Assembly: GCA_030950395.1 (NCBI GenBank)
Contig: JAUZRP010000012.1
Location: 1,048 to 65,047 of the forward strand
Source of the DNA: Desulfonauticus sp.
GTDB taxonomy: Bacteria > Desulfobacterota > Desulfovibrionia > Desulfovibrionales > Desulfonatronovibrionaceae
Length of the DNA stretch: 64,000 bases
Reading direction: 5' to 3'
Part shown: positions 32,665 to 57,882 of the stretch, piece after piece
Numbering within the stretch: position 1 is the stretch's first letter
How the letters are laid out: each line of letters opens with the position of its first letter
Made by a program: the position numbers and the translations under genes
Notes under the pieces: model-generated
What the model was told of the DNA's origin: nothing
What the model saw: only the letters and a program-made list of their open reading frames with translations
The model's database searches: none

Positions 32665-34563
32665 TTACAATTTTTCTTCTTTCCTATAAATTATATACCC
32701 AGAACCTTTCTGCTCTTTGGCTCTATACATAGCCTCATCACTGGCCTTTAGCAAATCGTTCAACACAACACCATGCTCAGGATAAACACTAATACCTATA
32801 CTAATGTGAATAATTATCTCTTCTCCCTGAATATAAAAAGGAGAAGCAAAAACTTCTATAACTTTTTGAACGACTTTAGATAACAACTTCAAATCTTTAA
32901 AATTTTCAATTATAAACACAAATTCATCTCCTCCTAAACGAGCAACAAAATCTCCATCTCTTAAAGCCTGTTTTATCCTCCTTGACACTTCAATTAATAA
33001 CCTGTCTCCAGCATCATGCCCATACAAATCATTCACAATTTTAAAATCATTCACATCAACATAACACAAAGCAAACTTTTTATTCATTTCTTTACATCTA
33101 TTTAGCACCTCATTGGCAACTTTAAAGAAATAAAGTCTATTTGGAAGACCTGTTAAAGCATCATGATAAGCTAAATACTGTATTTTCTTTTGTCTAACCT
33201 TTTTTTCTGTAATATCTCTAGCAAGAATACTTGCAATTTTTTGGTCTTTAAACTCAATCAAAAAAATACTTAATTCAATATAAAAAAATTTACCTTCTTT
33301 GTCGATACAAGAAACTTCTCGTATCAACTTACGTTTATCTATTAATTCTTCAAACAAATTTTTCAAATTTTCCCTTGATTCGTTAAATAAATCATAAATA
33401 GATAAAGTCTTAATTTCATCATCATGATAACCAAAATATTTTTTAAAACTATAATTATATTTCACAATACTATCAGTGTTAAAATCATACAGAAATATAA
33501 TATCAGGACTTTGTTCTAAAACAACAGAATAAAGAGAAAATTTATCAAATAGTTTATCATAATTTATAATAATCTTATTTAAAACATAGTAAAATTTATC
33601 TAATACTATTTGAAATTCTGTTTCTAACTTAGTTTTTACTAATTTAAAATCTTCATCATTTCTAATTTTTTCCAATATAACTAATGTATTATTAATAGAA
33701 TTTAAAATAATTTTTCTCAAAAGTATTATTATCATAAAAATAAAAATCATCAATAAGATTGAAACTAATAAAAAATATTTATTGGCATAATGTTTTATAA
33801 GTTTATAAATACTTTTATTTTGTTTAATAGACAATAAAATACTTTTATTTCCAAAAATATCTTTTCTCTTCCAAAAAATTAAACCATTTTTTAAGTCCAT
33901 ATCAACATCGAACGAATTAGAACCTGTCAAAAATCTATTGTTGTTAAGAGAATTACCTTCTACTATAGGTTGTATATTAAAAGTAATATCTTTACAGTTG
34001 ATAATATTATTTAATCTTGCTTTATTAAGAAAAATAACATCTAAAAACATATAATCTTTCTTATTAAATTTAAATTTTAAAATGGACACAATACTTATAT
34101 TCTTAGAATTTATAGGTAAAAATCCTGTAACGTTATTTTTGTTATCTAAGAAAAGTGTATTTATAATATTCGGTTTTAATTTATTTAACAACATTTTCAT
34201 ATTATTATTTTTTTTATCAAAAAACGACATAAATAATATATTTCCCTTACCATCAAAAATAACTAAGCCATCAAAATTAAGCTTCTTTAATATTTTCTCA
34301 GCTAAAAGTTTTCTTTGTTTAGTATTAGAGTTTATAAAATAATGAAGAACATCTGTATTGATCAACATATAATTAAAAATTTCTATATTCTTTAAATAAC
34401 CATCAACAAGCGTATTAACTCTCTTGTATTGATTTTTTAATTTGTTTTCTTCTATCTTTAGAGAAGACTTGAAAAGAATAAAATGTAATATAAAATAGTT
34501 TATTATAAGAAATACAACAAAAATTATTAGATATATTACGATTATCTTCCGTATGATAGACAT
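32665..34563 (-). CDS. membrane sensor diguanylate cyclase (2 TM + extracytoplasmic domain + PAS + GGDEF)
   Basis: TM1 IVIYLIIFVVFLIINYFILHFILF and TM2 FLLVSILLMIFIFMIIILL. PAS-like VVLEQSPDIIFLYD. Active site RLGGDEFVFII, with an RxxD I-site (RDGD) five residues upstream. Confidence 0.85.
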   Translation of the reverse strand: MSIIRKIIVIYLIIFVVFLIINYFILHFILFKSSLKIEENKLKNQYKRVNTLVDGYLKNIEIFNYMLINTDVLHYFINSNTKQRKLLAEKILKKLNFDGLVIFDGKGNILFMSFFDKKNNNMKMLLNKLKPNIINTLFLDNKNNVTGFLPINSKNISIVSILKFKFNKKDYMFLDVIFLNKARLNNIINCKDITFNIQPIVEGNSLNNNRFLTGSNSFDVDMDLKNGLIFWKRKDIFGNKSILLSIKQNKSIYKLIKHYANKYFLLVSILLMIFIFMIIILLRKIILNSINNTLVILEKIRNDEDFKLVKTKLETEFQIVLDKFYYVLNKIIINYDKLFDKFSLYSVVLEQSPDIIFLYDFNTDSIVKYNYSFKKYFGYHDDEIKTLSIYDLFNESRENLKNLFEELIDKRKLIREVSCIDKEGKFFYIELSIFLIEFKDQKIASILARDITEKKVRQKKIQYLAYHDALTGLPNRLYFFKVANEVLNRCKEMNKKFALCYVDVNDFKIVNDLYGHDAGDRLLIEVSRRIKQALRDGDFVARLGGDEFVFIIENFKDLKLLSKVVQKVIEVFASPFYIQGEEIIIHISIGISVYPEHGVVLNDLLKASDEAMYRAKEQKGSGYIIYRKEEKL

Positions 34564-39112: not shown

Positions 39113-40402
39113 ATGAAAACACTTAATCAAAACTTAAAAATTTACGTAGTCAGCCTGGGATGTCCCAAAAATCTGGTAGATACAGAAGAGCTCCTTGCCT
39201 CCCTTGGAGGGAAGTATAAATTAACTAATTCTTTAACTCAAGCAAATATAATTATTTTAAACACCTGTGCTTTTATTCAACCTGCTGTAGAAGAATCTTT
39301 AGAGCATATTTTAAATATTTCAGATAAGTTAAAGACTTTTCCTCAAAAACCTCTATTTATCGTAACTGGTTGTCTGGTAAATAGATATGGCAGCTTGAGC
39401 CAGGAATTTCCAGAGGTAGATATCTGGCTTCCTATTCAGGAACAAAAAAACTTGCCCAAAATACTTCAAAACTATCTTTGCGTTGGAGCAAAAAAATCGC
39501 CCTCAATTTTGACCACTTCTTTTGCTTATCTAAAAATTAGCGAAGGTTGTAACAACAAATGTTCCTTTTGCACTATTCCTTTTATTCGAGGCAAACTTTG
39601 CTCCCTACCCATTTCTGAAGTGGTAGCCAAAGCTAAGCATATTTTAAATCAAGGCAAAAAAGAACTTATACTCGTAGCTCAGGATCTAACGGCTTATGGA
39701 CGGGACCTTGGCTATAAATTTGGTCTATTGCACTTATTGGAGCAGTTAGCCCAATTAGATTTTACCTGGATAAGGCTTCTTTATCTGTATCCAGCCAACA
39801 TAAATAAAGAGCTTTTAAACTTCATAGTTCAAACAAAAAACATTTTGCCTTATTTTGACTTACCCTTACAACATTCCCATCCAGACATTTTACAATCTAT
39901 GGGCAGACCATTTAAAATCAATCCCCAACAAATCTTAGATTTAATTCGCTGTCATATAACAAACCCAGTAATTCGCTCTACGTTTATAGTAGGTTATCCA
40001 GGAGAAACTTTAGAACACTTCCAACATTTAAAAAGATTTATAATAAACAACAAGTTGCAATACGTTGGATTATTCACTTATTACAAAGAAAACGGCACAC
40101 TTGCAGCCCAATTGCCCAACCACGTTGCTGACCCTGAAAAGCAAAGCAGATACAACGAATTAATGGAAATACAACAGAAAATAACTCATAATTGGCTCCA
40201 AAAATGGGAAGGCCAAACTTTAGACATTATAATTGATAGTCCGCACCCTGAATGGCCTACCTTGTATGAAGGCAGAGCCTGGTTCCAAGCTCCAGATATA
40301 GACGGACTTACTTATGTAAGTGGCTCCAATCTCCAGATAGGTCAAATCGTGCCTGCCTCCATAGAAGAGGCCAAAACTTATGACCTAGTAGCCTTGGTCT
40401 AA
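39113..40402 (+). CDS. rimO: ribosomal protein S12 methylthiotransferase RimO
   Basis: MTTase N-domain (IYVVSLGCPKNLVDTE), radical-SAM ISEGCNNKCSFCTIP and a C-terminal TRAM domain. The family N-terminus fits the ATG at 39113 better than the track start at 39059. Confidence 0.85.
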   Translation: MKTLNQNLKIYVVSLGCPKNLVDTEELLASLGGKYKLTNSLTQANIIILNTCAFIQPAVEESLEHILNISDKLKTFPQKPLFIVTGCLVNRYGSLSQEFPEVDIWLPIQEQKNLPKILQNYLCVGAKKSPSILTTSFAYLKISEGCNNKCSFCTIPFIRGKLCSLPISEVVAKAKHILNQGKKELILVAQDLTAYGRDLGYKFGLLHLLEQLAQLDFTWIRLLYLYPANINKELLNFIVQTKNILPYFDLPLQHSHPDILQSMGRPFKINPQQILDLIRCHITNPVIRSTFIVGYPGETLEHFQHLKRFIINNKLQYVGLFTYYKENGTLAAQLPNHVADPEKQSRYNELMEIQQKITHNWLQKWEGQTLDIIIDSPHPEWPTLYEGRAWFQAPDIDGLTYVSGSNLQIGQIVPASIEEAKTYDLVALV

Positions 40403-40600
40403 TCAAAGACGAAAAACAAACCTGCTCCATATATCAGGACATTTTATAGCCCAGAGTCTATCACTAACCAAGCCCTAAAAATAAACTTCCGTTGACATTA
40501 ATCTTCACGTTTTCAACTGTAGTTTATATATCAAAAAAACTTATTTCCTGAATTTTATTCTAACATATTGATTTATAAAAATTTTTTTAACAAAAAATTT

Positions 40601-40616
40601 TGGCACACTCCTTGTT
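40601..40616 (+). promoter_or_regulatory. sigma54-type -24/-12 promoter candidate
   Basis: TGGCAC-ACTCC-TTGT compared with the consensus TGGCAC-N5-TTGC: correct spacing, with one mismatch in the -12 element. It lies 38 nt upstream of GTG 40654 (RBS AGGAG at 40641-40645). The operon it heads encodes a sigma54 activator. Confidence 0.55.
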
Positions 40617-40653
40617 ATAAAAAAGGTAACTTTTACAACAAGGAGAAGTAAAA

Positions 40654-41412
40654 GTGTTTTTACTCAGCAAATCTTTTCAAAAAGACGTGAAACAAATACT
40701 AAAACAAACAACTAGTCTAAAAAATATTATTTTTAATATTGATAATTCTTATAATCGTAAATATTATCCTACTAAAAGAAAAATTGACAAAGCAAAAAGA
40801 ATTGTACACGAAGGTAAATCATTGTATGAATTCAAAAAAGCTGCTTATGAAGCAAAAGTTAAAGAATTTAAGTTATGCCTGGATGAATTAATTTTTTCTA
40901 TAGAGAAAATAATTTCTATAGAGAAAAACTACATAATTCAGATACAATCAGAATTTAATGTTCCAGTTGCTCCTAAAATTAGAGAAAGTTATTTGCTAAA
41001 AATATTAAAAATTATAGATAACACTTATACGATAAGAGGAAAAAATATTTTTTGTTTCTATATACAACCTTGGTTAACAATAGATATAATCACCAAATTT
41101 ATAGAAGAAATAGAAAGTTATAAAGCTTTGAAACAAGCTAAATCTTATAAAGAAGAAGTGTGGGTATGGGTAAAAAAAATAAATTCTATTATAAATGAAC
41201 TTGAGTTAAAAAAAAGAGATTTAAAGTTATTAACAAAGTCTGTAAATAAAATAATTAGTCTGGTTTTATCTGCCAAAAACAAAGAAATGGAAAATATTGT
41301 AAGGGAAAATTTTATTAAACCTCTTTTAACAGAACACCTTTTTACTAAAGAACTTAAATTAACTAACGCTAGTATAAAATTAATTAAACAAGTAGAAAAT
41401 TTTAACTTATAA
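40654..41412 (+). CDS. hypothetical Lys-rich protein (252 aa), no recognisable family
   Basis: Long ORF with RBS and GTG start. Very AT-rich. First gene after the sigma54-type promoter. Confidence 0.5.
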   Translation: MFLLSKSFQKDVKQILKQTTSLKNIIFNIDNSYNRKYYPTKRKIDKAKRIVHEGKSLYEFKKAAYEAKVKEFKLCLDELIFSIEKIISIEKNYIIQIQSEFNVPVAPKIRESYLLKILKIIDNTYTIRGKNIFCFYIQPWLTIDIITKFIEEIESYKALKQAKSYKEEVWVWVKKINSIINELELKKRDLKLLTKSVNKIISLVLSAKNKEMENIVRENFIKPLLTEHLFTKELKLTNASIKLIKQVENFNL

Positions 41413-41430
41413 CCAAAAAAGGAGCTAAAA

Positions 41431-41790
41431 ATGAAAAATGAATTGGTTAAATTAGTTAAAACAGAAAAATTACCCAAATCTTTTCCAACAAAAATTAGCT
41501 CTGTATCAAAAAATTTAAAACATAATGATATATCACTTAAAGGTAAAAATATATTACTTTATTTAAAGTATGTTATTAAATATATCGAACATACCAGAGA
41601 AATAAATAAACTCAAAAAAGAACACGATCAAAAAATGTTTCAGCTAAATATGGAAGCTGAAATACGTCATAAAGAGATTGATAAAAAATTTATTTTAAAA
41701 AATAAAATTCTAGATATAATAGAAAAAAATGTAGAAAATATCACTCCAGAAATGTTAGAACAGTATGTAAAAATTTACATAAATAGTTAA
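41431..41790 (+). CDS. hypothetical Lys/Glu-rich, probably helical protein (119 aa)
   Basis: RBS AAGGAG 8 nt upstream of the ATG and an 18-nt gap to the previous gene. No family recognised. Confidence 0.5.
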   Translation: MKNELVKLVKTEKLPKSFPTKISSVSKNLKHNDISLKGKNILLYLKYVIKYIEHTREINKLKKEHDQKMFQLNMEAEIRHKEIDKKFILKNKILDIIEKNVENITPEMLEQYVKIYINS

Positions 41791-41817
41791 AATAAAATCT
41801 GTATAGATAAAGAAAAA

Positions 41818-42129
41818 ATGATTACTATATTAACAGAAATAGTTACATCATTAATAGAAAAATTTGGACATGTAGTTATTTTAGAAATAATTTCTTTTCT
41901 ACTCTCTAAGAAAAAAGAGAAAACAGAACAATTATATAAAATTCAAGAATTTGAGAAGTTTATAGAATTACATGAACAAATCCTAAAAAAGCAATTTATA
42001 AACATAGAACTAAAAGAGAAGATGGCAAAACTTATAGAAAAAAAACTTCAGGAAACAATATCCACAAATGACACACTTACTTTTAAAAGTTTTTTAGAAA
42101 GCTATTATAAACTTTTAACTCAAACTTAA
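41818..42129 (+). CDS. hypothetical small protein (103 aa) with a hydrophobic/amphipathic N-terminus
   Basis: MITILTEIVTSLIEKFGHVVILEIISFLL followed by a charged helical tail. No family recognised. Confidence 0.45.
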   Translation: MITILTEIVTSLIEKFGHVVILEIISFLLSKKKEKTEQLYKIQEFEKFIELHEQILKKQFINIELKEKMAKLIEKKLQETISTNDTLTFKSFLESYYKLLTQT

Positions 42130-42144
42130 GTTAAGGATACAATT

Positions 42145-42978
42145 ATGCATCACAATAAATATTGGTACAAAGTTTTATTTCACAAGGCAGACTTAGATAC
42201 CGTACTCACGGCCAAACTGGCAAGTGTAACCTGCTGGCGATTTTTAACTTCTGTGCCCAAAGCCACAGAGTTTGACCTTTTAGATACTCAGGTCCTATGC
42301 ATAGAAGTTGGTGGTTCTGGACAGGTTAGCCTACACAACTTTGACCATCACGATCCCTTTCACTACTTCCCTCCGGCTTGCAAGCAGGCTTACGACTACT
42401 TTGGGTGGGAAGATAAAAAATGGGAAAAAATAGTTCATTACGTCTGTTTAGTAGATGAGGGTAATCCGGTGGACGTAAACTTTCCTTCTTTATCCAACAT
42501 ATTTTCTGGTATGTGCTTGCTAATAGACGATCCAATAGAGCAGTTTTTAACTGGCCTATCTATTATTGATACAGTGTATGTCAAAGGCTTTGATCCCTTT
42601 CAAGCCCTTCCAGAATTACCAGAATGGAAACACTTTATTTTGGCCAAAGAACAAAACTTAGCTCAATTGCAACAAGACAGTAAAAATATCGTAACATTTT
42701 ACACAAAAACTAATATTTTTTGTGGATTTCTTGAGTCAAATGCGGTAGGAGGGTTTAAAATACTCTATGACAAGGGCTGTGAAGTAGGTGTGTTGTATAG
42801 TCCAAGACAAAACAAGTACACTATCGGCTCTAAACATCTAAATTTAACTAAACTTTTACAACAATTTCAATCTATTGAAGATGGTTGGGGTGGGAGACAA
42901 AACATTTTTGGTTCTCCTTATAGAGGCACTAAATTAACTCCAGCTGAAGTAATCAAGATAATTAAGGAAACGTTATGA
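42145..42978 (+). CDS. compact DHH/DHHA1-like phosphoesterase (NrnA/NrN-like) candidate
   Basis: Motif order resembles the DHH family: FHKADLDTVLTA (H-x3-D-x-D), NFDHHDP (DHH), VCLVDEGN, and C-terminal DGWGGRQNIFGSP (GGGH-like DHHA1 motif). Confidence 0.55.
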   Translation: MHHNKYWYKVLFHKADLDTVLTAKLASVTCWRFLTSVPKATEFDLLDTQVLCIEVGGSGQVSLHNFDHHDPFHYFPPACKQAYDYFGWEDKKWEKIVHYVCLVDEGNPVDVNFPSLSNIFSGMCLLIDDPIEQFLTGLSIIDTVYVKGFDPFQALPELPEWKHFILAKEQNLAQLQQDSKNIVTFYTKTNIFCGFLESNAVGGFKILYDKGCEVGVLYSPRQNKYTIGSKHLNLTKLLQQFQSIEDGWGGRQNIFGSPYRGTKLTPAEVIKIIKETL

Positions 42979-44471
42979 AAAAAAGAGTGTTAATCTCTTA
43001 CACAGGCAATCAAGATCCTCTAAACAAACAGGGGAAAGAGGGTCCTATTCTAACTCTTATAAAAGGGAAAAGATATGAATTTGAAGAAGTATATCTTTTA
43101 TATACCCGTTCAAAGGACAGTAGAAACGATCATCTCGAAACTGCAAAGGCTACCAAAGAAGCTATAAACAAAATCCATCCTCAAATAGAAGTTCACCTCT
43201 TGCCCATAAATACAGATGACCCTTCAGACCACATACTCATTTATAAGTTAACTCAAAAGGCTTTATCTGAAATAAAAACTCGTCTAAATGAAAAAAATAC
43301 ACGTATATTTATCAACATTTCTTCTGGCACCCCTCAAATGCACATAGCTTTTTTTCTATTAGTGGCTAGCCGGTACATTGCAGCCACTATGTTGTACCAG
43401 ACTCCACCTCAATTTGGCGGACAGATAAGAGAAATAATTCCTTGGTGTGAAGATATGCCTTCTATTTTGCCTTCTATTCCCAGAGGAAAACCAGAGTCCA
43501 CCAACATCCCTCTGGAAAATCTTTGTCAGGAAATAGGTCTAAAGGGAAAAAGTCCTGTTTTTTTGAACGCTCTTTTACACGTCCAAAAGTATGCTCCTTA
43601 TGATTTACCTGTAATTATTTTAGGAGAAAGTGGAACAGGCAAGGACCTATTTGCAAGATTAATTCACCTCACCAGTCCCAGGAAAGACAAAAGATTTCTT
43701 GCTTTTAACTGTGCGGCTATCCCAGAAAATTTGGCAGAAAGTGAGCTTTTTGGTTACAAAAAAGGCGCTTTTACAGGAGCTAGCATAGATAGAGATGGTC
43801 TATTTAAACAAGCAGACAGGGGAACTATATTTCTAGACGAGATTGGGGACCTATCTCTAAACTTACAGGCCAAGCTTTTGCGAGTGCTGGAAAATGGAGA
43901 AATTTTACCTATTGGAGCTAAGTGTGTAGAAAACGTTGACGTAAGGGTTATCGCTGCTACTCACAAAAACCTGGAAGATATGGTTAGTCAAGGCAAGTTT
44001 CGAGAAGATCTTTATTATAGGATAAATATTTTAAAAATAGATCTACCACCTCTAAGAGATAGAAAAGAAGACATTCCCGAAATATCCAAACACATTCTAC
44101 AAGAGTTTTGCGAACAAAATCAAATTAAAAAAACCTTTTCTGACCGGGCCCTATCTGCTCTTATGGCCTACCACTGGCCAGGTAACATACGAGAATTAAA
44201 AACGTTTGTGTGGAGAGCCGCTATTGAAGCTGAAGGAGAAGTTATAGATTATAAAGACTTGCAACTCTCTTATTCTTCAGAAAACAACCTCCTTAAAGAA
44301 CTACCTGCAACACCTTATGAAGGTTTTCAGTTAAACGAAGTTTTAGATAGATTAAGGATGTATTACTACAAAACAGCGTTAAAAAAAGCAGGGGGAAATA
44401 AGAGCAAGGCCGCAAGGCTGCTGGGAGTAAGTCCTCAAGCAATCTCTAAAATTTTCAAAAAGGAGGAGTAA
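42975..44471 (+). CDS. RtcR-like regulator: N-terminal CARF-like domain + sigma54-interaction AAA+ domain + Fis-type HTH
   Basis: VLISYTGNQDP...INISSGTPQMHIAFFLL (CARF-like). AAA+ core: GESGTGKD, YKKGAFTGA, IFLDEIGDL, FREDLYYRINI, HWPGNIRELK. C-terminal HTH: KSKAARLLGVSPQAISKIF. Confidence 0.85.
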   Translation: MKKRVLISYTGNQDPLNKQGKEGPILTLIKGKRYEFEEVYLLYTRSKDSRNDHLETAKATKEAINKIHPQIEVHLLPINTDDPSDHILIYKLTQKALSEIKTRLNEKNTRIFINISSGTPQMHIAFFLLVASRYIAATMLYQTPPQFGGQIREIIPWCEDMPSILPSIPRGKPESTNIPLENLCQEIGLKGKSPVFLNALLHVQKYAPYDLPVIILGESGTGKDLFARLIHLTSPRKDKRFLAFNCAAIPENLAESELFGYKKGAFTGASIDRDGLFKQADRGTIFLDEIGDLSLNLQAKLLRVLENGEILPIGAKCVENVDVRVIAATHKNLEDMVSQGKFREDLYYRINILKIDLPPLRDRKEDIPEISKHILQEFCEQNQIKKTFSDRALSALMAYHWPGNIRELKTFVWRAAIEAEGEVIDYKDLQLSYSSENNLLKELPATPYEGFQLNEVLDRLRMYYYKTALKKAGGNKSKAARLLGVSPQAISKIFKKEE

Positions 44472-45982
44472 TGGGGTATTATTTTAGTTTGCAATATTCA
44501 GGTATTCAAAAAACTGTTTTTAGGTACAATAGACTGTGGTCTATTGCAGGCATAAGCCAGATATTATCCCACTTAAATGAGCTGGAGATGGTAAGTATTG
44601 CTCAAAACCACGGGGGCAGTGTGGTAGTTGCTGGAGGTGGTAAGTTTACAGCTCGCTTTCCTGAAAGAGAAAAAGCTCTTTTAGCCAAAGAAGAGATCAT
44701 AAAAGTACTTTCTATCACACTCCCCATGCTAGAATTTCAATCCAGTCCTGTATTAGAAGGGAACTCGTTCCAAGAGATAAAATACGGCTACAGTGCAGAG
44801 AATACAGTTGTGCCTGGCATACTGGATTACTTAAACGAAGCCAAAAAATCTTATAGAGGATTTGGCTATTCTTTTAATCCCCACCTTAAGCTCTGCGACG
44901 AGTGTAGTGAATATCCTGCAGAGCACAAAGACAAAGAAGAAAAATTATGTAGGATTTGTTTTTGGGCCAAAAAAAATGCAAAACTAAACTACTCTCGCCA
45001 ATTTAGCTCTGATTGCACCACCTTAGAAAAGATTTATTTTAACTTTTTGGCTGACTTTGATCAAGAAGTGCAGGTTCCTTTAAACCTAGAAGATATATTT
45101 CCAGAAGGCCAGGAAAAGAAAAGGATTGCGGTGTGGGTCTCAGATTTGAACAACATGAATCAAAAAGTCCCCATTTGGTTAAATCAAAAAGAAGACGAAA
45201 TAAAAGCAACTTTTGACAAAGTAACTCAGATAAACGTGGACATTATCACTCAGGCCCTAAAAGATACCTTTCAAAACATTGTGGTTCAAAGAGAAGATAG
45301 CTATTTTATTCCTTTTCGCCTCATCGTGGCAGGAGGAGACGACCTATGCATTGTAATGGATGCCAAGTACGTGCTTAAATTTGCCACTAATCTCCATTAT
45401 GCTTTAAAAAACAAAATTGCTCAGTTAGATAAAGGACATCCTCTCCATCCTCAGTGGTTACAAGCACGTTCTAAAGACAACGGGAAGCTGGGACAATACT
45501 GTTTTGGAGCAAGCTTTGTAATTACAGACTTACATACAGCCTTTATAGACGTCCATAGATTAGCTGAAGACTTAATGAGGGAAGCCAAAGAAAACACAGA
45601 AAGAAAAGACAATTCTATAAATTGGCAAATCCTTTCTACAGATTTTTCTCCTGCAGAAAGTCTCCTCAACTTTCACAAGCCGTTGTTTTTTGAATCCCAG
45701 GATGAACAACCTGGTTTTTGTGATTATTATAAGTTATGTCAAAAATATCACACCCTATCGTCTTCAAAAATTTTTCAATTAGCAGACATACTGATGGAAC
45801 ATTTTGCTACAGGTGCAGACCTAAAAAAACAGATCCTTTCTTTACCTCAGATCTGGAAAAAGGGGCACGTATTAAGAAAACTTTTGCAAGAAAAAATTTT
45901 ACAAGATAACAACCACAATTTTCATCCCCAAAGATTAGCTAGTCTTTTAGAACTACTAACCCTCTATAAGGAGGCCAAATAA
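44471..45982 (+). CDS. cas10: minimal Cas10 (503 aa) lacking an HD domain, with an intact cyclase Palm (GGDD)
   Basis: Starts directly at the Cas10 Palm1 signature (LQYSGIQKTVF, VVAGGGKFTARF). Zn knuckle CDEC...CRIC. Palm2 VWVSDLNNMN and RLIVAGGDDLCIVMD, then FGASFVITDLH...LMREAK. Confidence 0.8.
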   Translation: MGYYFSLQYSGIQKTVFRYNRLWSIAGISQILSHLNELEMVSIAQNHGGSVVVAGGGKFTARFPEREKALLAKEEIIKVLSITLPMLEFQSSPVLEGNSFQEIKYGYSAENTVVPGILDYLNEAKKSYRGFGYSFNPHLKLCDECSEYPAEHKDKEEKLCRICFWAKKNAKLNYSRQFSSDCTTLEKIYFNFLADFDQEVQVPLNLEDIFPEGQEKKRIAVWVSDLNNMNQKVPIWLNQKEDEIKATFDKVTQINVDIITQALKDTFQNIVVQREDSYFIPFRLIVAGGDDLCIVMDAKYVLKFATNLHYALKNKIAQLDKGHPLHPQWLQARSKDNGKLGQYCFGASFVITDLHTAFIDVHRLAEDLMREAKENTERKDNSINWQILSTDFSPAESLLNFHKPLFFESQDEQPGFCDYYKLCQKYHTLSSSKIFQLADILMEHFATGADLKKQILSLPQIWKKGHVLRKLLQEKILQDNNHNFHPQRLASLLELLTLYKEAK

Positions 45983-45983
45983 A

Positions 45984-47825
45984 ATGTACTTTTCTAAAGG
46001 AAAACTAAAGGTAAAAGCCAGAGGTTACTGGTTTACCCTTGGAGGAGAAAAAGGTTCTTTTGGCTATTACCCCCACCTCAAAGATAAAGACAACTTGCCC
46101 ATATATCCCGATACTCAACTCAAAGGGAATATCAGAGATGGGCTAGAATGGTACTTAAAACTGCAAGGAACATCTTTACCCCAAGAAATAGTTTCTCATA
46201 TTTTTGTAACAGATTTACGCTTGTCTAACCCTGCTCTCTGGCAAAGAGATAGATTTCAAGTCAAGCCAAGAATTGCTATTGACGACACGAGCCACACCGT
46301 TCAGGAGCATAATCTAGCCTTTATGGAACTGGCTTATTTAGACGGTTTAGAACTAGAAGCAGACGTTTATTTAGGTTATATTTCAGACCAAAGCCAGCAT
46401 CAACAACTAAAAAATTGGCTGAAAAAAAGTGTTCAGCTTATGCCTGACATGGGAAGTTTTCGTTCACGGGGAATGGGCAAAGGAGATTATAAACTCCAGT
46501 GGCTAGAAGACAAAACCATCTCGCCCACTCTAGAAGATATAGAAGTGGAAGCCAAACCTTTATTGTATTGTCTAAAAAACCTAACCAATTTTAGAAACAA
46601 ACCTATAGAACCAGATAGTTACAATTATGTTCCAACTCTCCGCTATATTACTGCCCATCAATTAAGGTCGTGGTTTATCAAAACTTATTACCAAATTTTT
46701 CACGAATGGCCAGACATTACAGAGCTGGCCAAAATTAACTTTCCCTATCTCTATCCTTGTGAGGTGAATAAAGACCAATTTTATCTGGCTTATCCTGCAG
46801 CCATGACCAGTTTTATAGAGCACTCAAACAAAGGACCACAAATAATAGATTTTTTATCTCATCCCCAAAAAAATCCAATCCACGATCACCCCGCCATTAC
46901 TAGAGTCAAAAGAAAAGCAATCCCTGATCACATTTATGTTGCACCAGGTGAGCAACCTAAAGTTGTAGAAATTTCTATTGGCAAACGGATCAGAAATAGT
47001 TTGAACGATAAATTTTCGTCTTTAGAGGAAAAAGGACTTTTTGTGCAAGAATTTATCCCGGCCAACACTATGTTTGGAGGAATTATCTCGTTTTCTAAAC
47101 CGCTAGAAAAATGTTTTGGGCAAAGGTTTCAATATATCCTTTGCAACATAACACCCACATTAAAAGGAAGCTTATTTGCACCTTACCTACAAATTTACAA
47201 CGACCATACCCAAAAAAATAGCCAGCATCATCTGGTAATAGCCCCTATACCTTACAGGCCCTTGCAATCCCAATCATCAAGATGGATAGTGCAAGAAATA
47301 GAAGGCAGAAAAAAGGTCATTCAGGACAGAGTTTCTTTAATAAAAATTGGCACTAACAGAAGTTATAACGTTTACTTAAAAAGACCTAAAAGACCACGCA
47401 TAGTTATTCAACAAGGCTCTGTATTGCTCGAAGAAATTAATGGCCAGACAATACCCTGGAGAGGTTTGTCTAAGAGCGTGCTTCTGTCTAAGTCCTCTAC
47501 TCTGGAAACCAAAAATTCAAACGCCCAACCAGATGCTAAAGCAGTTGATCTGGCCCAAAAACTCTATCAAGAACTTAGTGCATCTCATCTTGGATTTTTG
47601 AGAAACTTTTTAAACAAAAAAATACCCCTACCCACCCTAAAAGACATCTCCCTGGATAGGCAAGACAAGTACACCAGAAAAGGGAAGACCAACCTTAGTT
47701 TACTTTACGCGCATCTTGCCTCATTAATAGACAAAGATAACTCAGGAGAAAGTTTGAGAAAGTTCGTAGAGGATTTAGTGGCAGAAATAAGAAGCCTAAA
47801 ATGGCAAAAGGAGTATAAACAATGA
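45984..47825 (+). CDS. multidomain RAMP protein (Cas5/Csx10-like and/or Cas7-like N-terminal modules, helical Cas11-like C-terminus)
   Basis: RAMP motif LPIYPDTQLKGNIRDGLEW and G-rich loop MGSFRSRGMGKGDY. A second RAMP-like LRYITAHQLRSWF. The last ~110 aa look all-helical. Domain identities are inferred. Confidence 0.55.
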   Translation: MYFSKGKLKVKARGYWFTLGGEKGSFGYYPHLKDKDNLPIYPDTQLKGNIRDGLEWYLKLQGTSLPQEIVSHIFVTDLRLSNPALWQRDRFQVKPRIAIDDTSHTVQEHNLAFMELAYLDGLELEADVYLGYISDQSQHQQLKNWLKKSVQLMPDMGSFRSRGMGKGDYKLQWLEDKTISPTLEDIEVEAKPLLYCLKNLTNFRNKPIEPDSYNYVPTLRYITAHQLRSWFIKTYYQIFHEWPDITELAKINFPYLYPCEVNKDQFYLAYPAAMTSFIEHSNKGPQIIDFLSHPQKNPIHDHPAITRVKRKAIPDHIYVAPGEQPKVVEISIGKRIRNSLNDKFSSLEEKGLFVQEFIPANTMFGGIISFSKPLEKCFGQRFQYILCNITPTLKGSLFAPYLQIYNDHTQKNSQHHLVIAPIPYRPLQSQSSRWIVQEIEGRKKVIQDRVSLIKIGTNRSYNVYLKRPKRPRIVIQQGSVLLEEINGQTIPWRGLSKSVLLSKSSTLETKNSNAQPDAKAVDLAQKLYQELSASHLGFLRNFLNKKIPLPTLKDISLDRQDKYTRKGKTNLSLLYAHLASLIDKDNSGESLRKFVEDLVAEIRSLKWQKEYKQ

Positions 47826-49174
47826 TAGGGAAAAAATGTGTCTTAAAAGTCAATTTAGATTTTTCGTTAACCACTCCTCTTATTATTAAGTCAGAAAGTA
47901 ACGAAGACTACATTGATGCCAAAATAGATCGAACTCCAGATGGAAAACTCTACATCAACGGTTACGTATGGGCCTCGTTATTTAGACGAGCAGCAAAAAG
48001 ACTAAAAAAAGTGCCACATTTATTTCACAAATTAGGCAACTACGAAGGCAAAGAAGGCGTATCTCTATTTTGGTTTGAGGGCTCTAGCGTAGATCTAGTG
48101 ATTACGGACATAAGACCGGGCCTAAACATCCACAGACGATATGGCAGCGCGCTAGATGGAGCTCTTTACTTTGAAGAAATCGTGCCCTGTGGAATGCGTA
48201 TCCCTCTTAGTTTTAAAGTATTTGCTGACGAGTTTAACGAACTTGAGTCAGTTCTAAAAACTTTGCAGGAGGCTATATACATTATTGACTCGGGCATAGA
48301 AAATATTGGCGGAAATTGGAGTTATGGTCTAGGGAGATTAAAGTTTGTTTCTGGTACTTATCAAATGCTAGACCTTAGCCGGGACAGTGACCTCGAACTC
48401 TTAGCAGAAGACAAAATTTTAAAAAATTCTTTTCACCCCCAAGCAGGCAAGGTTCAACAAGTCTGGATAAAATACAAGGTCAAAGCCAGAATAGAAAAGG
48501 GCCAATTATTGGCTATTCATTCCGAACTTCCACCTTTGGATTTAACAAATCAAAAAGCCAAACTCCTTCCAGAAGAACCTGACCACTACGTTTTTCGCTC
48601 TTTTGTGCTGGAAGACGGCTCTCCCAAACAAAAATTTGTCCTGCCAGGAAAAATCATTAGACAGGCTTTGTTTTCTCAACACATTGAAAGAAAATTAAGG
48701 ACCCAAGGGGAGCACGTCTGCTCTTTAAGAGGAGACAAGTGCACTTGCGCCATCTGTGAGCAAGCGCGCTTAGAAAAGCCAAAACTAAAAAAAGCCCCAG
48801 ATTGTCAATGCAAAATCTGCCGCTGGTTTGGATCTACTGACTCCAGAGGGATTATAGCTGTTACAGACGCGGTTATAAAAAATGCCTCAACTGTAGATCT
48901 TAGAAGGATCCAACTCTGTGAACACTCTATGCAAAACATAAACTTATTTTTTGAAGAATACTTAACCCAAGGCAACTTTGAGTTTGAAATACTGATAGAC
49001 CAACCTAAAGATAACCAGGAACTTTTAGAAAATGTAGAGCAAGTGCTAGAGGAAATGACAGCCCAAAATGCTCCCCCAGGATGGTACAGATTGGGCAATT
49101 CTACTACGTGCGCTGGTAGCATAAGAGTATTAGAATGGAATAAAGAGCAAGTGCAGGAGGAAGAAAATGCATGA
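47822..49174 (+). CDS. fusion of two Cas7 (Csm3/Cmr4-like) RAMP domains
   Basis: Module 1: TTPLIIKS...IDAKIDRTPDGKLYINGYVWASLFRR and NIGGNWSYGLGRLKF. Module 2: FVLPGKIIRQALFS, Cys cluster CSLRGDKCTCAIC...CQCKICRWFGSTDSRG, and GWYRLGNSTTCAGSIRV. Confidence 0.7.
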   Translation: MIGKKCVLKVNLDFSLTTPLIIKSESNEDYIDAKIDRTPDGKLYINGYVWASLFRRAAKRLKKVPHLFHKLGNYEGKEGVSLFWFEGSSVDLVITDIRPGLNIHRRYGSALDGALYFEEIVPCGMRIPLSFKVFADEFNELESVLKTLQEAIYIIDSGIENIGGNWSYGLGRLKFVSGTYQMLDLSRDSDLELLAEDKILKNSFHPQAGKVQQVWIKYKVKARIEKGQLLAIHSELPPLDLTNQKAKLLPEEPDHYVFRSFVLEDGSPKQKFVLPGKIIRQALFSQHIERKLRTQGEHVCSLRGDKCTCAICEQARLEKPKLKKAPDCQCKICRWFGSTDSRGIIAVTDAVIKNASTVDLRRIQLCEHSMQNINLFFEEYLTQGNFEFEILIDQPKDNQELLENVEQVLEEMTAQNAPPGWYRLGNSTTCAGSIRVLEWNKEQVQEEENA

Positions 49175-49610
49175 TTTTCAACAAGGTTACTTAATTTATG
49201 CTGTAAAACAAACCTCAAACTGTCCAGAAATAGACTTGAAACAGTGGGACAATGGCTACGTTGCCTTTTCTAATAGAGAATATCCGCTTCAAGAATTAAA
49301 ACAACTGGACCTTAAACAAATGCTTAACCAAGATCAACTACCTAAAGACGCTGAAGGTTACATAATGGAAATCGATTTGTGGAGAAAAACAGACCACGTT
49401 TACGAAGAAATCTCCATAGAGCGCGAAGATACCCTCTTTTTTATTCAACATTGGCAACTTTTTACTCAAAAAATAGATGGGGCAGATCTATGTTTTTACA
49501 GATGTGCCTCTACCGCGCCCAGAGCAAACAGTATATTTAACCAATTAAAGAGCATAGAAGTTGTTGTACCAGACAAAAGATTACACTTTTTCATAACTAA
49601 ACCAGATTAA
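49167..49610 (+). CDS. unrecognised 147-aa protein embedded in the effector module
   Basis: Overlaps the upstream gene by 8 nt, so it is probably translationally coupled. No RAMP or Cas11 motif recognised. Confidence 0.5.
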   Translation: MHDFQQGYLIYAVKQTSNCPEIDLKQWDNGYVAFSNREYPLQELKQLDLKQMLNQDQLPKDAEGYIMEIDLWRKTDHVYEEISIEREDTLFFIQHWQLFTQKIDGADLCFYRCASTAPRANSIFNQLKSIEVVVPDKRLHFFITKPD

Positions 49611-49648
49611 AAATCCCTCAAACACCCCAAAATAAATGGAGGCCAATT

Positions 49649-51526
49649 ATGCGTGGTAAAGGTAAAAAAAACAAAAAAAATAAACATGTTATCCCTGCAG
49701 GGACAGCTCCCTACAAATTTATAAAAAGAAAAAAGCCTAACAAAAAACCTGCTACTGAATTTTTGGACAAACTAGAGCATTTTGACCTCGCCCTAGAAAT
49801 AGAATGGAAGGCGATTACCCCTATAGCTTTAAACCCTTGCCTCGATTGGAACGAACCAGCCAACAATCCTCAATTGGATAACGATGCCTATTATGCGGGA
49901 TACAATAGACGGTGGCTCACTGTAGAAGATAGAGCGGCCATAAGTCCTTTTACTGTAAAGTCCGCCATTGCCAATGCCTATGCCAACCTCATGGGCGGAT
50001 GTTATCGGGTCAATACTATAGTAGAAAGGCACAAAGAACTCCTACAGGGACAATACCCTTATGATGGGTCCTACAAAAGGTACAGGGTAGCAATGGATGG
50101 AAGCTCAAAACCGGGCATAATTCTAGACATAAAAGAGCTGGACGATGGCTCGCGCTATGTAAAAATTTTACCTGTAAAAGAATATTACCTGGATACCGAG
50201 CCAAACATGCCCTTAAAACGAGGTCAAGAGGTCAAACTGAGAATTGTAAAAGAAAGAGGATATAAACCAGATATCGTAGTGTTAGATCCGACCTCTTCCT
50301 TTAGTGCTATTTATCACGGTCCCTATGCTTATGGAATGAATCTTTCCAATCCTAAAGGACCAAAACACAAACACAGATTTTACCAAGCCAAAGGTAAAGC
50401 CGTAGAGGGCATAATTGCCAAAGAAAATTTTTATTCCAAAGACAAGCTAATGCAGTGTGTTTACGTGGGAGGACGAGATCAGAACAATCAAAAAATCCCT
50501 CATTGGTATCAAAATTTATCAGACTTAAAAAAAGGTGATTTTATTTATTACGAAGAATTTAATAACAAGGTTCAACATCTGGGGAAAAACTTTCTCTTTA
50601 AGACCATATTTTTGCATCAAGATACCATACCAGAAGGACAGGAAACCTGTAGCGATCCCAACCAGTTGTGTCCGCGCTGCAGACTTTTTGGACTGACCTT
50701 TCAAAAGGAAGAAAAAGAGGCCACTGGCTTAAAAGGCAGGTTCAAAGCCTGTACCCTGATTTCAGACTTTGTGATTAACAGAGAAAAGTCAGATAGAGCA
50801 AAAGTGCCGGTATATATAGAAAGGGACAAACAGAGCAAGCAGGAAAAGTTGGATATAACTATCTTAAAAACCCCAGAGGGCAGGGAAATAGGTCGGCAAT
50901 TTCTTTTTCCTGTGCAAGGACCACCCAAGCCCAACAAAAGAGATGTAAACGGTTATTATGAAAAAGATACAGGCTACCTAAAAGGGGCAAAAGTTTATAA
51001 GCACACAGAAGAAAATCACTTTACTGCCCTCTTAGAGGAAATAAACCACACGTTTAAAACAATTAAAGACCAAAAAGAAGCCAGTTCGTACAGATTGCGC
51101 AATTGGGGAGAGGTATTGTACGCTGGGGCGAGTTTTCGGGGTGTTGTAGGATTGGAAAATAGCACGTTGGACGAAGTCTGTGGGATAATATTTTTATTGC
51201 ACACTCCATTTTCTAAGCACGGATACAAACTTGGTCTGGGCAAGGCTTTTGGTCTTGGCTCTGTGGAGTCTTATGTAAAAAAAATCTGGATAAGGACGCC
51301 CCAGGATTATACCTGGAAAAGCTTTGAGGTGGAGGATGATCTATTACGATCTATTGAAAAAGCTGGTTTAAAAGATCTGACAGCTGGGCTGCAAAAGTTA
51401 AAACAAGCTGACAACATGTTGCAACGCATAAATTCCATTCAGGACAAGGCAGATAAGTTACGATTTCCCCCCCCAGGTCTTACGTATTGGAAAAATTTTA
51501 ATCAAATGCAGCAGAGGAAAAAATGA
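49649..51526 (+). CDS. Cas7-family RAMP protein with a large insertion (Csm5/Csx19-like position)
   Basis: AISPFTVKSAIANAYANL (RAMP helix motif), CPRCRLFGLT and the G-rich loop GYKLGLGKAFGLGSVE. A Lys-rich N-terminal tail is also present. Confidence 0.65.
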   Translation: MRGKGKKNKKNKHVIPAGTAPYKFIKRKKPNKKPATEFLDKLEHFDLALEIEWKAITPIALNPCLDWNEPANNPQLDNDAYYAGYNRRWLTVEDRAAISPFTVKSAIANAYANLMGGCYRVNTIVERHKELLQGQYPYDGSYKRYRVAMDGSSKPGIILDIKELDDGSRYVKILPVKEYYLDTEPNMPLKRGQEVKLRIVKERGYKPDIVVLDPTSSFSAIYHGPYAYGMNLSNPKGPKHKHRFYQAKGKAVEGIIAKENFYSKDKLMQCVYVGGRDQNNQKIPHWYQNLSDLKKGDFIYYEEFNNKVQHLGKNFLFKTIFLHQDTIPEGQETCSDPNQLCPRCRLFGLTFQKEEKEATGLKGRFKACTLISDFVINREKSDRAKVPVYIERDKQSKQEKLDITILKTPEGREIGRQFLFPVQGPPKPNKRDVNGYYEKDTGYLKGAKVYKHTEENHFTALLEEINHTFKTIKDQKEASSYRLRNWGEVLYAGASFRGVVGLENSTLDEVCGIIFLLHTPFSKHGYKLGLGKAFGLGSVESYVKKIWIRTPQDYTWKSFEVEDDLLRSIEKAGLKDLTAGLQKLKQADNMLQRINSIQDKADKLRFPPPGLTYWKNFNQMQQRKK

Positions 51527-53568
51527 TTTCTTTAGAACCCTTGTATTTTTTACATTGCACGTTTCAGGTAGTAGAGTCTATTCACAACTTGCCTTACTTT
51601 ACGGGGCAACACTGGTCTGGTTTATTGCGAGACGTGTACAGAGGACTATTTGACGAGTCTATGCCAGACACAATAGCTGTCATTCCCTACGAAACAGGTC
51701 TATCTTCTATACTTGAAGGTTCCAGGGTTTCTATTTTACTCAAAGTTCCTGCAGCCTTACTAGAGCAGATTAAAAAAGTTTTATTGGCTTTACCTCAATT
51801 TTCACACCTCAAAGGGCATCTTGTGCCCCAGAAGAGAATTGTGCTGGAAAAGGTCATTTGCGCGCTTTCTCAAAAAGAACTTTTTCTTGAAGAACCAGAA
51901 ACTTTTCAAATCAAACACGTGGAGTCAGCTGTACAGCAGTTAAGGCAATCTAAAACCATTACCCTTATGTTTTATACTCCTCTAAGACTTTCTAGACCTG
52001 CAGGCACAAAGGAAAAAGGACACAACTTTATAGATAGCGACTTTTTGTGCAACCCTTTAGCTGGGGTTATATTTTTGGAAAAGTTTATTTCCTCTATAAG
52101 AAATATATCTTTTACTGCCCCAAATAGCCAATGTTCTCTTGAGCCCGGAGCTATTTTTTGGATAGATACCAGTTACAATAGCCTCAATACCAAAACCATA
52201 GGAGGAATAATAGGCAAAGTAAAATTGACCAACGTAGATCAAAATTTGTTTTTACCTCTCGTTTTGGGACAATACACAGGAGTTGGCAAAAACAACAGCT
52301 TTGGACTGGGATATTACACCATAAAAGAAGTGCCCAACCTATTTCCCTTTGTTTTGTCCAACAATCCCTTTGGATCTGACTTTGATCCTAACCGTCCATT
52401 TTCTTCTCTAAACTTAAGACAGCTTAAGAGTGTAAGGTTTCCATGGATAAAAAACAATTGTTTTCAAGATACATTAGAGCTGGATAGACAGTACAACACC
52501 TTTTCTAAAGAAAAGAAAAAAGACGTTTTACACAGCCTTTTCCCCTTACACCACCATTTACCTCCAGAAGACAAAAAAATAGACCATACGGTGGAGGATC
52601 TGGTCCAAAGAAAACCTATGTTTCTGACCAGATTTGTATCCAGGGTGCGCAGTGAAGGAGAATATCTAGTAATCGAAATGGGCGATAAATTAAAGATAAA
52701 AAATCTTTGGAGCACCATTGGCCACCTTTTTTTGATAGGCAAGCCACCTGTTACCACGGGTATAATCTACAAAGCCATGCAATGCGGGATTCCTGTTACT
52801 TTTATGAACATGATGGGCAAAACTCAGGGACACCTGTATCCAGAAGGTCACGATCTGGCTATTTATACCAACTTACAATTAAAGAGGCAACAGGACAAAG
52901 ACTTTATTCTGGAATTTGCCAAAGAAATAGTCTCTGCCAAAATTCACAACTCTATAGTCATCCTTAGAAGAAACAAACAGAATTACGAGGAGTTAAAAGA
53001 AATTTTAAATTCTATTAACAAGGTCAAAGACATAGACGCGTTAAGAGGTTATGAAGGGATAGCAGCAAAAGCCTATTTTAAAAAGTTTAGAACCCTGATA
53101 GAAACTTTTGGGTTTGAAAACAGAGAATATCATCCTTCTACTGATCCAGTAAACAGCATGCTCTCTTTTTGTTATTCTTTACTTTACAATCGCCTTGCTT
53201 CTATTTTGAGAATAAGAGGTTTAAACCCGAGACTAGGACTGTATCACGCGTCTCGAGGCAGACACGCTGCTTTGGCTTCAGATCTAATGGAAGAATTACG
53301 GCACGTGGCAGAAAGAATAGTATTAAAGATAATTCACAGAAAAGAAATTAAAACAGATCAATTTATTTATAAGGAACAAAAGGGAAAAAAGTATTGTGAG
53401 ATACCAAGAGAGATAATTAGTCTGTTGGTCTATAGATTTGAAGAAGTAATGCATCAAAACAACGCTCTTTATTCAGGAGAGTTGTATTACTTTTTGGATA
53501 AGATGGTTCAACGATTTATTTTATTTTTACAAAACAAAGCACCATATAAGGCAATAAGAATAAGATGA
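51523..53568 (+). CDS. cas1: Cas6-like domain fused to Cas1 (no reverse transcriptase domain)
   Basis: N-terminal ~275 aa end in the Cas6-type G-rich loop GVGKNNSFGLGYYTIKE. C-terminal ~330 aa carry Cas1 motifs (LRGYEGIAAKAYF, STDPVNSMLSFCYSLLY, GLYHASRGRHAALASDLMEELR). Confidence 0.75.
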   Translation: MISLEPLYFLHCTFQVVESIHNLPYFTGQHWSGLLRDVYRGLFDESMPDTIAVIPYETGLSSILEGSRVSILLKVPAALLEQIKKVLLALPQFSHLKGHLVPQKRIVLEKVICALSQKELFLEEPETFQIKHVESAVQQLRQSKTITLMFYTPLRLSRPAGTKEKGHNFIDSDFLCNPLAGVIFLEKFISSIRNISFTAPNSQCSLEPGAIFWIDTSYNSLNTKTIGGIIGKVKLTNVDQNLFLPLVLGQYTGVGKNNSFGLGYYTIKEVPNLFPFVLSNNPFGSDFDPNRPFSSLNLRQLKSVRFPWIKNNCFQDTLELDRQYNTFSKEKKKDVLHSLFPLHHHLPPEDKKIDHTVEDLVQRKPMFLTRFVSRVRSEGEYLVIEMGDKLKIKNLWSTIGHLFLIGKPPVTTGIIYKAMQCGIPVTFMNMMGKTQGHLYPEGHDLAIYTNLQLKRQQDKDFILEFAKEIVSAKIHNSIVILRRNKQNYEELKEILNSINKVKDIDALRGYEGIAAKAYFKKFRTLIETFGFENREYHPSTDPVNSMLSFCYSLLYNRLASILRIRGLNPRLGLYHASRGRHAALASDLMEELRHVAERIVLKIIHRKEIKTDQFIYKEQKGKKYCEIPREIISLLVYRFEEVMHQNNALYSGELYYFLDKMVQRFILFLQNKAPYKAIRIR

Positions 53569-53828
53569 TAGTATTAGTTTGTTATGACATTAGCGACGAT
53601 AAAAAGAGAAATAAAGTTGCTGATATTTTGCTAAAAAAAGGTGTCAGGTTGCAAAAGTCTGTATATCTTTTAAACATAAGAAAAGACAACCTAAAGAAAC
53701 TAATGCACCAACTGCGGCAAAATATAGACCTGTGGGATGCTGTGCTCATCTGTCCAGTGTGCAAAAGATGTCAGTCCATGATTTTGCAGGTAAATTGTGA
53801 TAATCGCGAAAAGGCTATCGTATTTTAA
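53565..53828 (+). CDS. cas2: CRISPR-associated endoribonuclease Cas2
   Basis: MIVLVCYDISDDKKRNKVADILLKKGVRLQKSVYLL. Overlaps the cas1 stop by 4 nt. Confidence 0.85.
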   Translation: MIVLVCYDISDDKKRNKVADILLKKGVRLQKSVYLLNIRKDNLKKLMHQLRQNIDLWDAVLICPVCKRCQSMILQVNCDNREKAIVF

Positions 53829-54134
53829 AATGGAGGAGTGATTTTTGGTTATTGAGAATTTATGATGGAAACATAAGTGGGGATGTGAAGTATTAAAGAA
53901 TTTGCCAAAAGTTGTGCGTTTTTTTACACGGTTTTGGGTTCTGTGAAAATTGAAGAGCTTTAATGAAGTCATAACAAGGGGTTATTAAAAATTTCAGGTA
54001 GGGGCATGACGGTCCGTCGCCTATTTTAAGTTTGCGTGAACCTTCTAAAAAAAAGGGTCAAAACAGGTAAAAAAAAGAGAGGTTCACGCAAACGCCCTGA
54101 GAGCCCTTGGGGCTCTAGGGCTAAAAAGGTTGCT
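53829..54134 (+). promoter_or_regulatory. putative CRISPR leader
   Basis: 306-bp non-coding stretch between cas2 and the first, perfect repeat. The degenerate repeat is at the opposite end of the array. Contains two strong hairpins (54031-54092 and 54094-54121). Confidence 0.5.
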
Positions 54135-55705: not shown

Positions 55706-55828
55706 TGGTAATTTATAATTAGTGATTTGTTTTTGTGTTTGGGTTATCATAGGGGCAAGCCCCATGTGTCTGCCCAGAGATGGCTATGGAATACTATAGG
55801 ACATTTTAACAACTTATAGAGGAAAATT

Positions 55829-57844: not shown

Positions 57845-57846
57845 AA

Positions 57847-57882
57847 AGACAAGGAGCAGACGTGCAAGTCTGCTCCTTGTCT
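57847..57882. terminator. bidirectional intrinsic terminator closing the CRISPR island
   Basis: Perfect 15-bp stem AGACAAGGAGCAGAC / GTCTGCTCCTTGTCT with loop GTGCAA. It abuts the stop codon of the convergent flavodoxin-like gene. Confidence 0.75.

Follow-up and report, generated by a model that had tools for sequence, protein, structure and literature searches.

The accessory proteins of type III CRISPR systems are normally found through their sensor domains, as with the sensor-fused effectors Csm6/Csx1, Can1-2/Card1, Cam1 and Cami1. Type III signalling can also have a transcriptional output, for which Csa3, a CARF protein with a winged helix-turn-helix (wHTH) domain (PMC8699464), and the CalpL-CalpT-CalpS system, in which a protease releases a sigma factor (PMC11229360), have been described. 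A related group of regulators, the RtcR_PspF-type activators composed of CARF, AAA+ and helix-turn-helix (HTH) domains, was associated with sigma-54-promoted defence operons by Makarova et al. in 2014 (PMC4012209). Regulators were set aside in a 2024 survey, and the 2025 classification lists "transcriptional regulators" among the effectors with no mention of sigma-54 (PMC12669027); we found no paper on a CARF-sigma-54 activator within a type III locus or on the targets of such an activator. Here, we analyze three very AT-rich open reading frames (ORFs A, B and C) that stand at the promoter-proximal end of a type III-D CRISPR operon in a 64-kb stretch of Desulfonauticus sp. DNA. This window corresponds to positions 1048–65047 of contig C24 in a metagenome-assembled genome (MAG) of 2.22 Mb in 172 contigs with 35.4% G+C. 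The explanation that we prefer, and that as a whole chain we put forward only tentatively, is that ORFs A–C are genuine protein genes, orphans specific to their lineage that came from foreign DNA of low G+C, and that they occupy the cargo slot next to the promoter in a circuit of CARF activator and sigma-54. Defence islands gated by CARF-AAA+ proteins are already catalogued; what is new here is the orphan cargo.

The locus has in common with the RtcR_PspF-type systems the activator family (PDLC01995) and, by prediction, a sigma-54 promoter accompanying the activator, with defence genes as the cargo that would be regulated. Nevertheless, our activator gene is part of a type III-D CRISPR operon and the promoter precedes all the genes of that operon, whereas in those systems it is found ~125 nt downstream of the activator. 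Three orphans come first in the cargo, in the place of a conserved protein of 94 aa and a Type I restriction-modification system. As for Csa3 and CalpL-CalpT-CalpS, a Cas10 second messenger would yield new transcription and not the direct activation of a nuclease, but the predicted route would use a sigma-54 enhancer-binding ATPase. In addition, the first targets would be orphan proteins, whereas those of Csa3 and CalpS are cas genes or unknown. The likeness to the sensor-fused effectors is that they are also accessory genes in a type III locus, and relatives of our locus have small membrane proteins in the equivalent slot. In contrast, no CARF, SAVED, other sensor or recognised effector domain was found in ORFs A–C with Pfam, NCBIfam and PADLOC, and any control of them would be transcriptional.

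The phage-shock operon of Escherichia coli, pspABC with its activator PspF, offers another comparison. It comprises an enhancer, an IHF site, a sigma-54 promoter, a helical protein of ~25 kDa and small proteins with an N-terminal hydrophobic helix, and its induction is linked to phage or envelope stress. The likeness lies in the layout alone, and we take it as a lead only. The idea that a PspA is encoded here was discarded: the PspA_IM30 profile does not match ORFs A–C, a genome-wide search with it gave nothing at the locus or convincing elsewhere, and there is no PspB or PspC.

The lengths of the three ORFs (252, 119 and 103 aa) and their tight spacing, as given in the original prediction, were confirmed, with gaps of 18 nt (A/B), 27 nt (B/C) and 15 nt between C and the following gene, p277, which encodes a conserved type III-D-associated protein. 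The open run of ORF A exceeds the maximum of 151 codons reached among 2000 Markov simulations of matched composition, and ORFs B and C individually attain only about the 99th percentile of random open runs in the same simulations. A chi-square analysis of composition by codon position gave p = 9e-7 for A, 2e-4 for B and 2e-4 for C, and p = 0.29 for the adjacent upstream intergenic DNA taken as control; the frequency of G in the ORFs is about 0.2 at position 1 versus 0.03–0.10 at positions 2 and 3. The motif AAGGAG occurs exactly twice in 40627–42144, 8 nt before the GTG of ORF A and 6 nt before the ATG of ORF B. Such placement is hard to obtain by chance at 22% G+C, which speaks for A and B being translated as cistrons of their own. 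A ribosome-binding site had been claimed for each ORF; it stands for A and B and fails for C, where there is no Shine-Dalgarno (SD) sequence. Within ORF A, an 18-nt tandem duplication (40890–40925; AATTTTTTCTATAGAGAA / AATAATTTCTATAGAGAA) keeps the reading frame and encodes IFSIEK-IISIEK. We consider it quite likely that ORFs A–C are real proteins. The AT-rich stretch could, instead, be a long regulatory leader, for instance a target of nucleoid-protein silencing or a promoter-rich region for basal cas expression, in which the ORFs are accidental. The extreme A+T content, the excess of sigma-70-like sites (23 matches versus 15.2 in shuffles), ORF C lacking an SD and the open runs of B and C, which taken alone come only near the 99th percentile, would agree with this, but it is very improbable in view of a 252-codon frame beyond all simulations, a periodicity that is significant in all three ORFs and absent from the intergenic control, and the placement of the SD motifs at A and B.

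The composition of the stretch is also particular. Its G+C content is 22.2% in 40654–42129 versus 38.3% from p277 to cas2, the step coincides exactly with the C/p277 junction at the start of p277, and the region falls within the lowest 1–2% of the genome's 1-kb windows. The sharp difference from the cas genes that had been noticed from spot counts thus holds, and the counts themselves are exact (12 G+C in the line at 41401 and 27 in that at 48061). Comparison with two genomes of the genus (G001 and G002) shows that the type III-D island, of ~18 kb, is an insertion at 40403–58378, running from ORFs A–C through the nuclease gene p671 and a 161-aa gene, in a variable spot; ORFs A–C form its left edge after rimO. 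In the sister genome G001, rimO is followed by a single gene for a 531-aa ATPase and then by a homologue of the window gene at 58379–58714, after which synteny resumes, and in G002 rpsA comes directly after rimO. The post-rimO site therefore varies within the genus, holding the 18-kb CRISPR island here (window 40403–58378), the 531-aa ATPase gene in G001 and rpsA in G002 (loci L022 and L023).

Low-G+C foreign DNA with working-looking genes is common in the source genome, across which there are ~39 AT-rich islands, so that a separately acquired origin of ORFs A–C, as originally proposed, fits with its surroundings. The G+C step and the other islands speak for that origin; no donor or relative of the module was found, nor an insertion scar, and a search for terminal repeats or target-site duplications flanking it gave none convincing. 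An assembly artefact, that is, a chimeric join bringing AT-rich reads of another organism into the MAG, would be in line with the abrupt composition jump in an assembly of 172 contigs. We find it hardly credible, since the gene context is sensible at both junctions, with promoter and SD on the left and, on the right, 15 nt and the SD of p277. In addition, synteny with the sister genome holds on the flanks, and this genome harbours further AT-rich genes whose domains are clear. As separate observations on AT-rich DNA of this organism, an island 6 kb upstream of ORFs A–C encodes a 632-aa membrane sensor with PAS- and GGDEF-like parts (window 32665–34563, minus strand, 23% G+C), and a second, complete CRISPR-Cas locus, of type III-B and 22–29% G+C, is located on another contig of the source genome, G000 (C123:13166–21038), with Cas1b, Cmr6, CARF-RelE, Cmr3, Cas10b and a 137-aa gene.

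The original prediction had found no assignable motif in the three proteins, and the searches with Pfam, NCBIfam, PHROGs and PADLOC agree, giving nothing credible (in PHROGs, no match below E 0.01). In a collection of 5.8 billion clusters, each of A, B and C matches itself alone, as a singleton cluster on one contig, and an exhaustive HMMER pass of ORF A against 1.84 billion representative proteins returned only itself. There are no paralogues elsewhere in the source genome, and the three are not related to one another. No homologue was found in 40 relatives including two same-genus genomes, ORFs B and C had no match above chance in 400 genomes of the order, ORF A had none in phages and plasmids (tblastn), and the IMG/VR viral contigs hold no relative of A, B or C. 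Homologues recurring next to type III or CARF genes, which the original prediction had in view, were thus seen in none of the collections searched. A few weak matches were discarded. ORF A gave noise alone against PDB sequences (Galectin-10, E 0.2). ORF C had a weak match beside p277 in locus L036 (E 0.008, in a small database) that straddles the end of a gene for 711 aa in another frame. The match of ORF B to an ATPase gene on contig C141 (33% over 52 aa) is a chance-level helical similarity, and its other matches in the order-level scan have stop codons inside or are at chance level.

ORFs A–C could also be mobile-element genes, selfish or anti-defence (anti-CRISPR-like or an addiction module), placed at the island edge by chance. 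In favour of this, the proteins are small, basic and orphan, their composition is foreign, and they lie where a defence island begins in a variable hotspot after rimO. This is about as improbable as the leader, or slightly more so, because no match appeared in the phage, plasmid and viral-contig collections or in PHROGs, the ORFs are accompanied by neither an integrase nor repeats nor an HTH partner gene, none of the spacers has a match there, and ORFs A–C run in the direction of the cas operon and are closely spaced with it.

Regarding the proteins themselves, the dominance of K/E/I/L/N described earlier is real, but it is not a special feature. The FYMINK content of ORFs A–C (43–50%) equals that of domain-bearing AT-rich genes of the same genome (GGDEF 48%, Cas10b 45%, CARF-RelE 50%), and therefore the K/I/N/E bias is compositional and carries no functional signature. 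The hydrophobic/amphipathic start of ORF C is real as well; as a membrane helix it is only borderline, with a Kyte-Doolittle 19-residue maximum of 1.64 and E/K within the segment. The corresponding maxima of A (1.35) and B (0.69) indicate no transmembrane helix.

The promoter assigned to ORF A is the sole sigma-54-like site in the island, and an exact IHF consensus, one of four matches in the window, is situated 28 nt upstream of its -24 element. The -12 element has the form TTGT. Sites of this form also precede an FlhA-like ORF, a FliJ-like ORF and an activator gene (bacterial enhancer-binding protein, bEBP) on other contigs, TGGYAT-N5-TTGC sites are found before a FliD-like ORF and others, and TGGCAC-N5-TTGC is nearly absent from the source genome. 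In many bacteria, flagellar genes are typically transcribed with sigma-54 and, since the TTGT variant stands before such genes, it is probably functional in this genome, and so at our locus. Within the window, a further sigma-54-type promoter of the TTGT form (TGGCACATCTTTTGT, 11850–11864, minus strand) was observed 26 nt before fliK-flgD (Pfam Flg_hook, FlgD). The source genome contains rpoN, as an ORF with Sigma54_DBD on contig C141 (E 2e-65), and at least 12 activator genes. No terminator is predicted across 40300–44600, neither between rimO and ORF A nor between the genes down to cas10, and the genes from ORF A on overlap or are separated by gaps of 27 nt at most. In predicted RNA folds, the SD of ORF A is paired in read-through RNA coming from rimO (z -2.2 to -2.65) and lies in a loop when the RNA starts at 40627. 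The presence of the anti-SD arm only in the read-through RNA suggests that ORF A would be translated mainly from the sigma-54 transcript.

The surroundings of related genes help in placing this promoter. Homologues of p277 were found at 16 genome loci in Desulfobacterota, Nitrospirota and Desulforudis MAGs, where their usual neighbours are type III-D RAMP/cas10 genes, the same activator family or CARF-nuclease proteins of 670–710 aa. A scan with the CARF domain of the activator gave 80 metagenome loci (L040–L119) with full-length relatives ~40% identical, and the 71 loci of at least 3 kb were counted. About 40 of these have a canonical sigma-54 promoter 110–165 nt past the end of the activator gene and in the orientation of that gene, and its cargo is the conserved 94-aa protein followed by HsdR/HsdM, or vWA operons; the association reported by Makarova et al. 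(PMC4012209) is thereby recovered. This cargo protein of ~94 aa has the motif IIDGDTF...RPxGYDAPE and no Pfam family. The loci linked to p277 or type III genes have promoters too, with a cargo that is different at every locus, mostly Pfam-less and often made of membrane proteins. In L024, two perfect sigma-54 promoters stand in tandem, separated by 72 nt, and are followed by a strong SD (AAGGAGG) and a hydrophobic peptide of 43 aa (L024:9058–9340); in L038, two promoters precede small membrane proteins of the glycine-zipper kind, an orphan of 253 aa and an EcsC protein; orphans are accompanied by a CitMHS-type permease in L055 and by a multi-pass membrane protein in L101. The activator gene of L024 was seen to be split by a frameshift. 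A promoter heading the operon that holds both activator and cas genes is particular to the window and common to L020, in which the order is promoter, signal-peptide protein, CARF-nuclease, activator and p277. A common enhancer motif upstream of the sigma-54 promoters of the related loci was also looked for, and nothing clear was seen by eye.

The window thus appears to fit a recurring layout in which an activator and a sigma-54 promoter go together with cargo that is particular to the lineage. The sigma54/CARF-regulated promoter of the original prediction stands well as a prediction, given a TTGT element like those before flagellar genes, the IHF site, rpoN, an activator of the RtcR_PspF2 family and the recurrence of promoter plus cargo in relatives. 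We regard it as somewhat probable that ORFs A–C are under sigma-54/CARF control.

Several points weigh against our preferred explanation. Besides ORF C having no SD, the three ORFs lie in one reading frame with single TAA codons between them (492 codons, two stops); the chance expectation of this is 1/9, and the pattern could come from an ancestral gene that was split or could have arisen by chance. The GG and the spacing of the promoter are correct, but its -12 element has GT in place of the GC of the canonical TTGC. In most relatives the promoter is downstream of the activator, and here it is 2.4 kb upstream of it. ORFs A–C could have been inserted between a promoter and the gene it really serves, p277; in L030, a sigma-54-like promoter comes before p277 with no ORFs in between, and p277 is followed there by three small ORFs, one of which has two membrane helices. 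None of the cargo proteins of the relatives resembles A–C, and no collection searched holds a homologue of A–C that would speak for recurrence or purifying selection. The single-sequence AlphaFold2 models are mostly helical and too poor for a fold search (pLDDT 49.7 for A and 48.0 for B and C read through the TAA). Finally, the RtcR proteins of E. coli and Salmonella respond to tRNA fragments or RtcAB and not to cyclic oligoadenylate (PMC7790460, PMC9650030).

Part of these observations would be accommodated if ORFs A–C were a passenger or decaying insert, that is, AT-rich foreign DNA, possibly one gene of ~490 codons split by two TAA mutations, that separates the sigma-54 promoter from the genes it was selected to drive (p277, the activator and the cas genes). 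The ORFs might then still be translated with no role in defence, and the insert would have only incidental effects, such as extra sigma-70-like promoters and a longer leader. The shared frame with single TAA separators, the total orphan status with all clusters singletons on one contig, the G+C step exactly at the start of p277, the L030 promoter directly before p277, the sigma-70-like matches above shuffles and the many AT-rich islands of the genome are all in its favour. On the other hand, the only two AAGGAG motifs in 1.5 kb sit at the starts of A and B, which is not expected of a recently split gene, a strong periodicity is kept in A, B and C, and the gene junctions are tidy, with no insertion scars or terminal repeats found. 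We see the passenger as somewhat doubtful, but as the main rival of our preferred explanation and one to be taken seriously.

In the explanation of ORFs A–C as cargo of the circuit, the sequence of events would start with the binding of invader RNA by the complex guided by CRISPR RNA (crRNA), upon which the HD-less, GGDD-bearing Cas10 would produce cyclic oligoadenylate. This messenger would activate the CARF-nuclease p671 directly and would also bind to the operon's own AAA+ activator, at its CARF domain; we infer this activation of the activator from the embedding of the activator in a type III-D operon that has such a Cas10. Aided by IHF bending, the activator would remodel sigma-54 RNA polymerase at TGGCAC-N5-TTGT (40601–40615), and the transcript from ~40627, devoid of the anti-SD arm, would allow translation of ORF A. 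A feed-forward effect would follow, with B, C and p277 being produced and then more activator and more Cas10 complex. Since ORFs A–C have no sensor domain, their activity would depend on synthesis and not on ligand binding. Their most likely role would be an infection-induced accessory or growth-arrest function, exerted by C via its N-terminal hydrophobic helix and by A and B as basic helical proteins. That the promoter is used, that cyclic oligoadenylate activates the circuit, that the genes are co-transcribed and that A–C have any activity are all deduced here from sequence, and a defence-related function of A–C is conceivable, if on the doubtful side. The induced effectors of the original prediction are thus a hypothesis, and the arrangement in one frame would also suit a decaying passenger gene.

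Table 1. Positions in the window of ORFs A–C, the upstream regulatory elements and the CRISPR island genes.
Feature	Position	Strand	Description
Inverted repeat ATAAACTTCCGTTGA-N17-TCAACTGTAGTTTAT	40481–40527		15-nt arms, 87% complementary; candidate enhancer (upstream activating sequence, UAS), ~75–120 nt upstream of the -24 element
IHF-consensus site AATCAATATGTTA (WATCAANNNNTTR)	40561–40573	-	between the candidate UAS and the promoter
Sigma-54 type promoter TGGCAC-N5-TTGT (-24/-12)	40601–40615	+	predicted transcript start near 40627
15-nt inverted repeat	40608–40645	+	93% complementary; left arm (anti-SD, overlaps -12) pairs with the SD of ORF A
ORF A	40654–41412	+	252 aa, GTG start, AAGGAG 8 nt upstream, pI 9.7, orphan
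ORF B	41431–41790	+	119 aa, ATG start, AAGGAG 6 nt upstream, pI 9.6, orphan
ORF C	41818–42129	+	103 aa, ATG start, no SD, hydrophobic/amphipathic N-terminus, orphan
p277	42145–42978	+	277 aa; conserved type III-D-associated accessory protein; motifs DLDT, NFDHHD, GWGGR
CARF-AAA+-HTH sigma-54 activator	42975–44471	+	RtcR_PspF2 family, PDLC01995 E 5e-134; start overlaps p277 stop
Cas10	44471–45982	+	503 aa, GGDD cyclase motif, no HD domain
Type III-D genes	45984–53828	+	three RAMP genes and a 147-aa gene (listed as 613, 450, 147, 625 aa), Cas6-Cas1 fusion, Cas2
CRISPR array	54135–55705	+	21 identical 35-nt repeats and a degenerate last one; 20 spacers
p671	55829–57844	+	671 aa, CARF and PD-(D/E)xK-type nuclease

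The genes downstream of ORFs A–C are listed together with them in Table 1. No match of p277 was obtained in Pfam or in a profile search of PDB sequences; the motifs of its family (invariant DLDT, N-x-DHHD and GWGGR...GSP), seen in the window (42145–42978) and in L020, L021 and L024–L039, recall those of DHH phosphoesterases. The activator, encoded four genes downstream, has a Sigma54_activat domain (E 6e-68). Among the type III-D proteins of the related loci, a TIGR03986-like RAMP protein (L030:2049–4193) carries an N-terminal extension that, by eye, resembles an RNA-recognition motif (RRM; ...KGFGFVV...). Self-targeting was considered and discarded, as none of the 20 spacers matches the genome or the AT-rich module. 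From its predicted domains, p671 is the canonical signal-activated effector of the island.

The value of ORFs A–C themselves is modest pending expression or a phenotype. We think it unlikely, yet worth stating, that they are the first sensor-less effectors of type III CRISPR, controlled by synthesis, in a fast-evolving slot that each lineage fills with unrelated small toxic or membrane-active proteins; if this were true, the cargo slot would be a place to look for new abortive-infection proteins. The module of activator plus promoter is regular and the CRISPR-linked cargo is variable and largely unannotated, so the idea is directly testable. Moreover, if an embedded CARF-sigma-54 activator drives whatever follows its promoter, there may be sensor-less effectors that are missed by domain searches and that could be found by their position.

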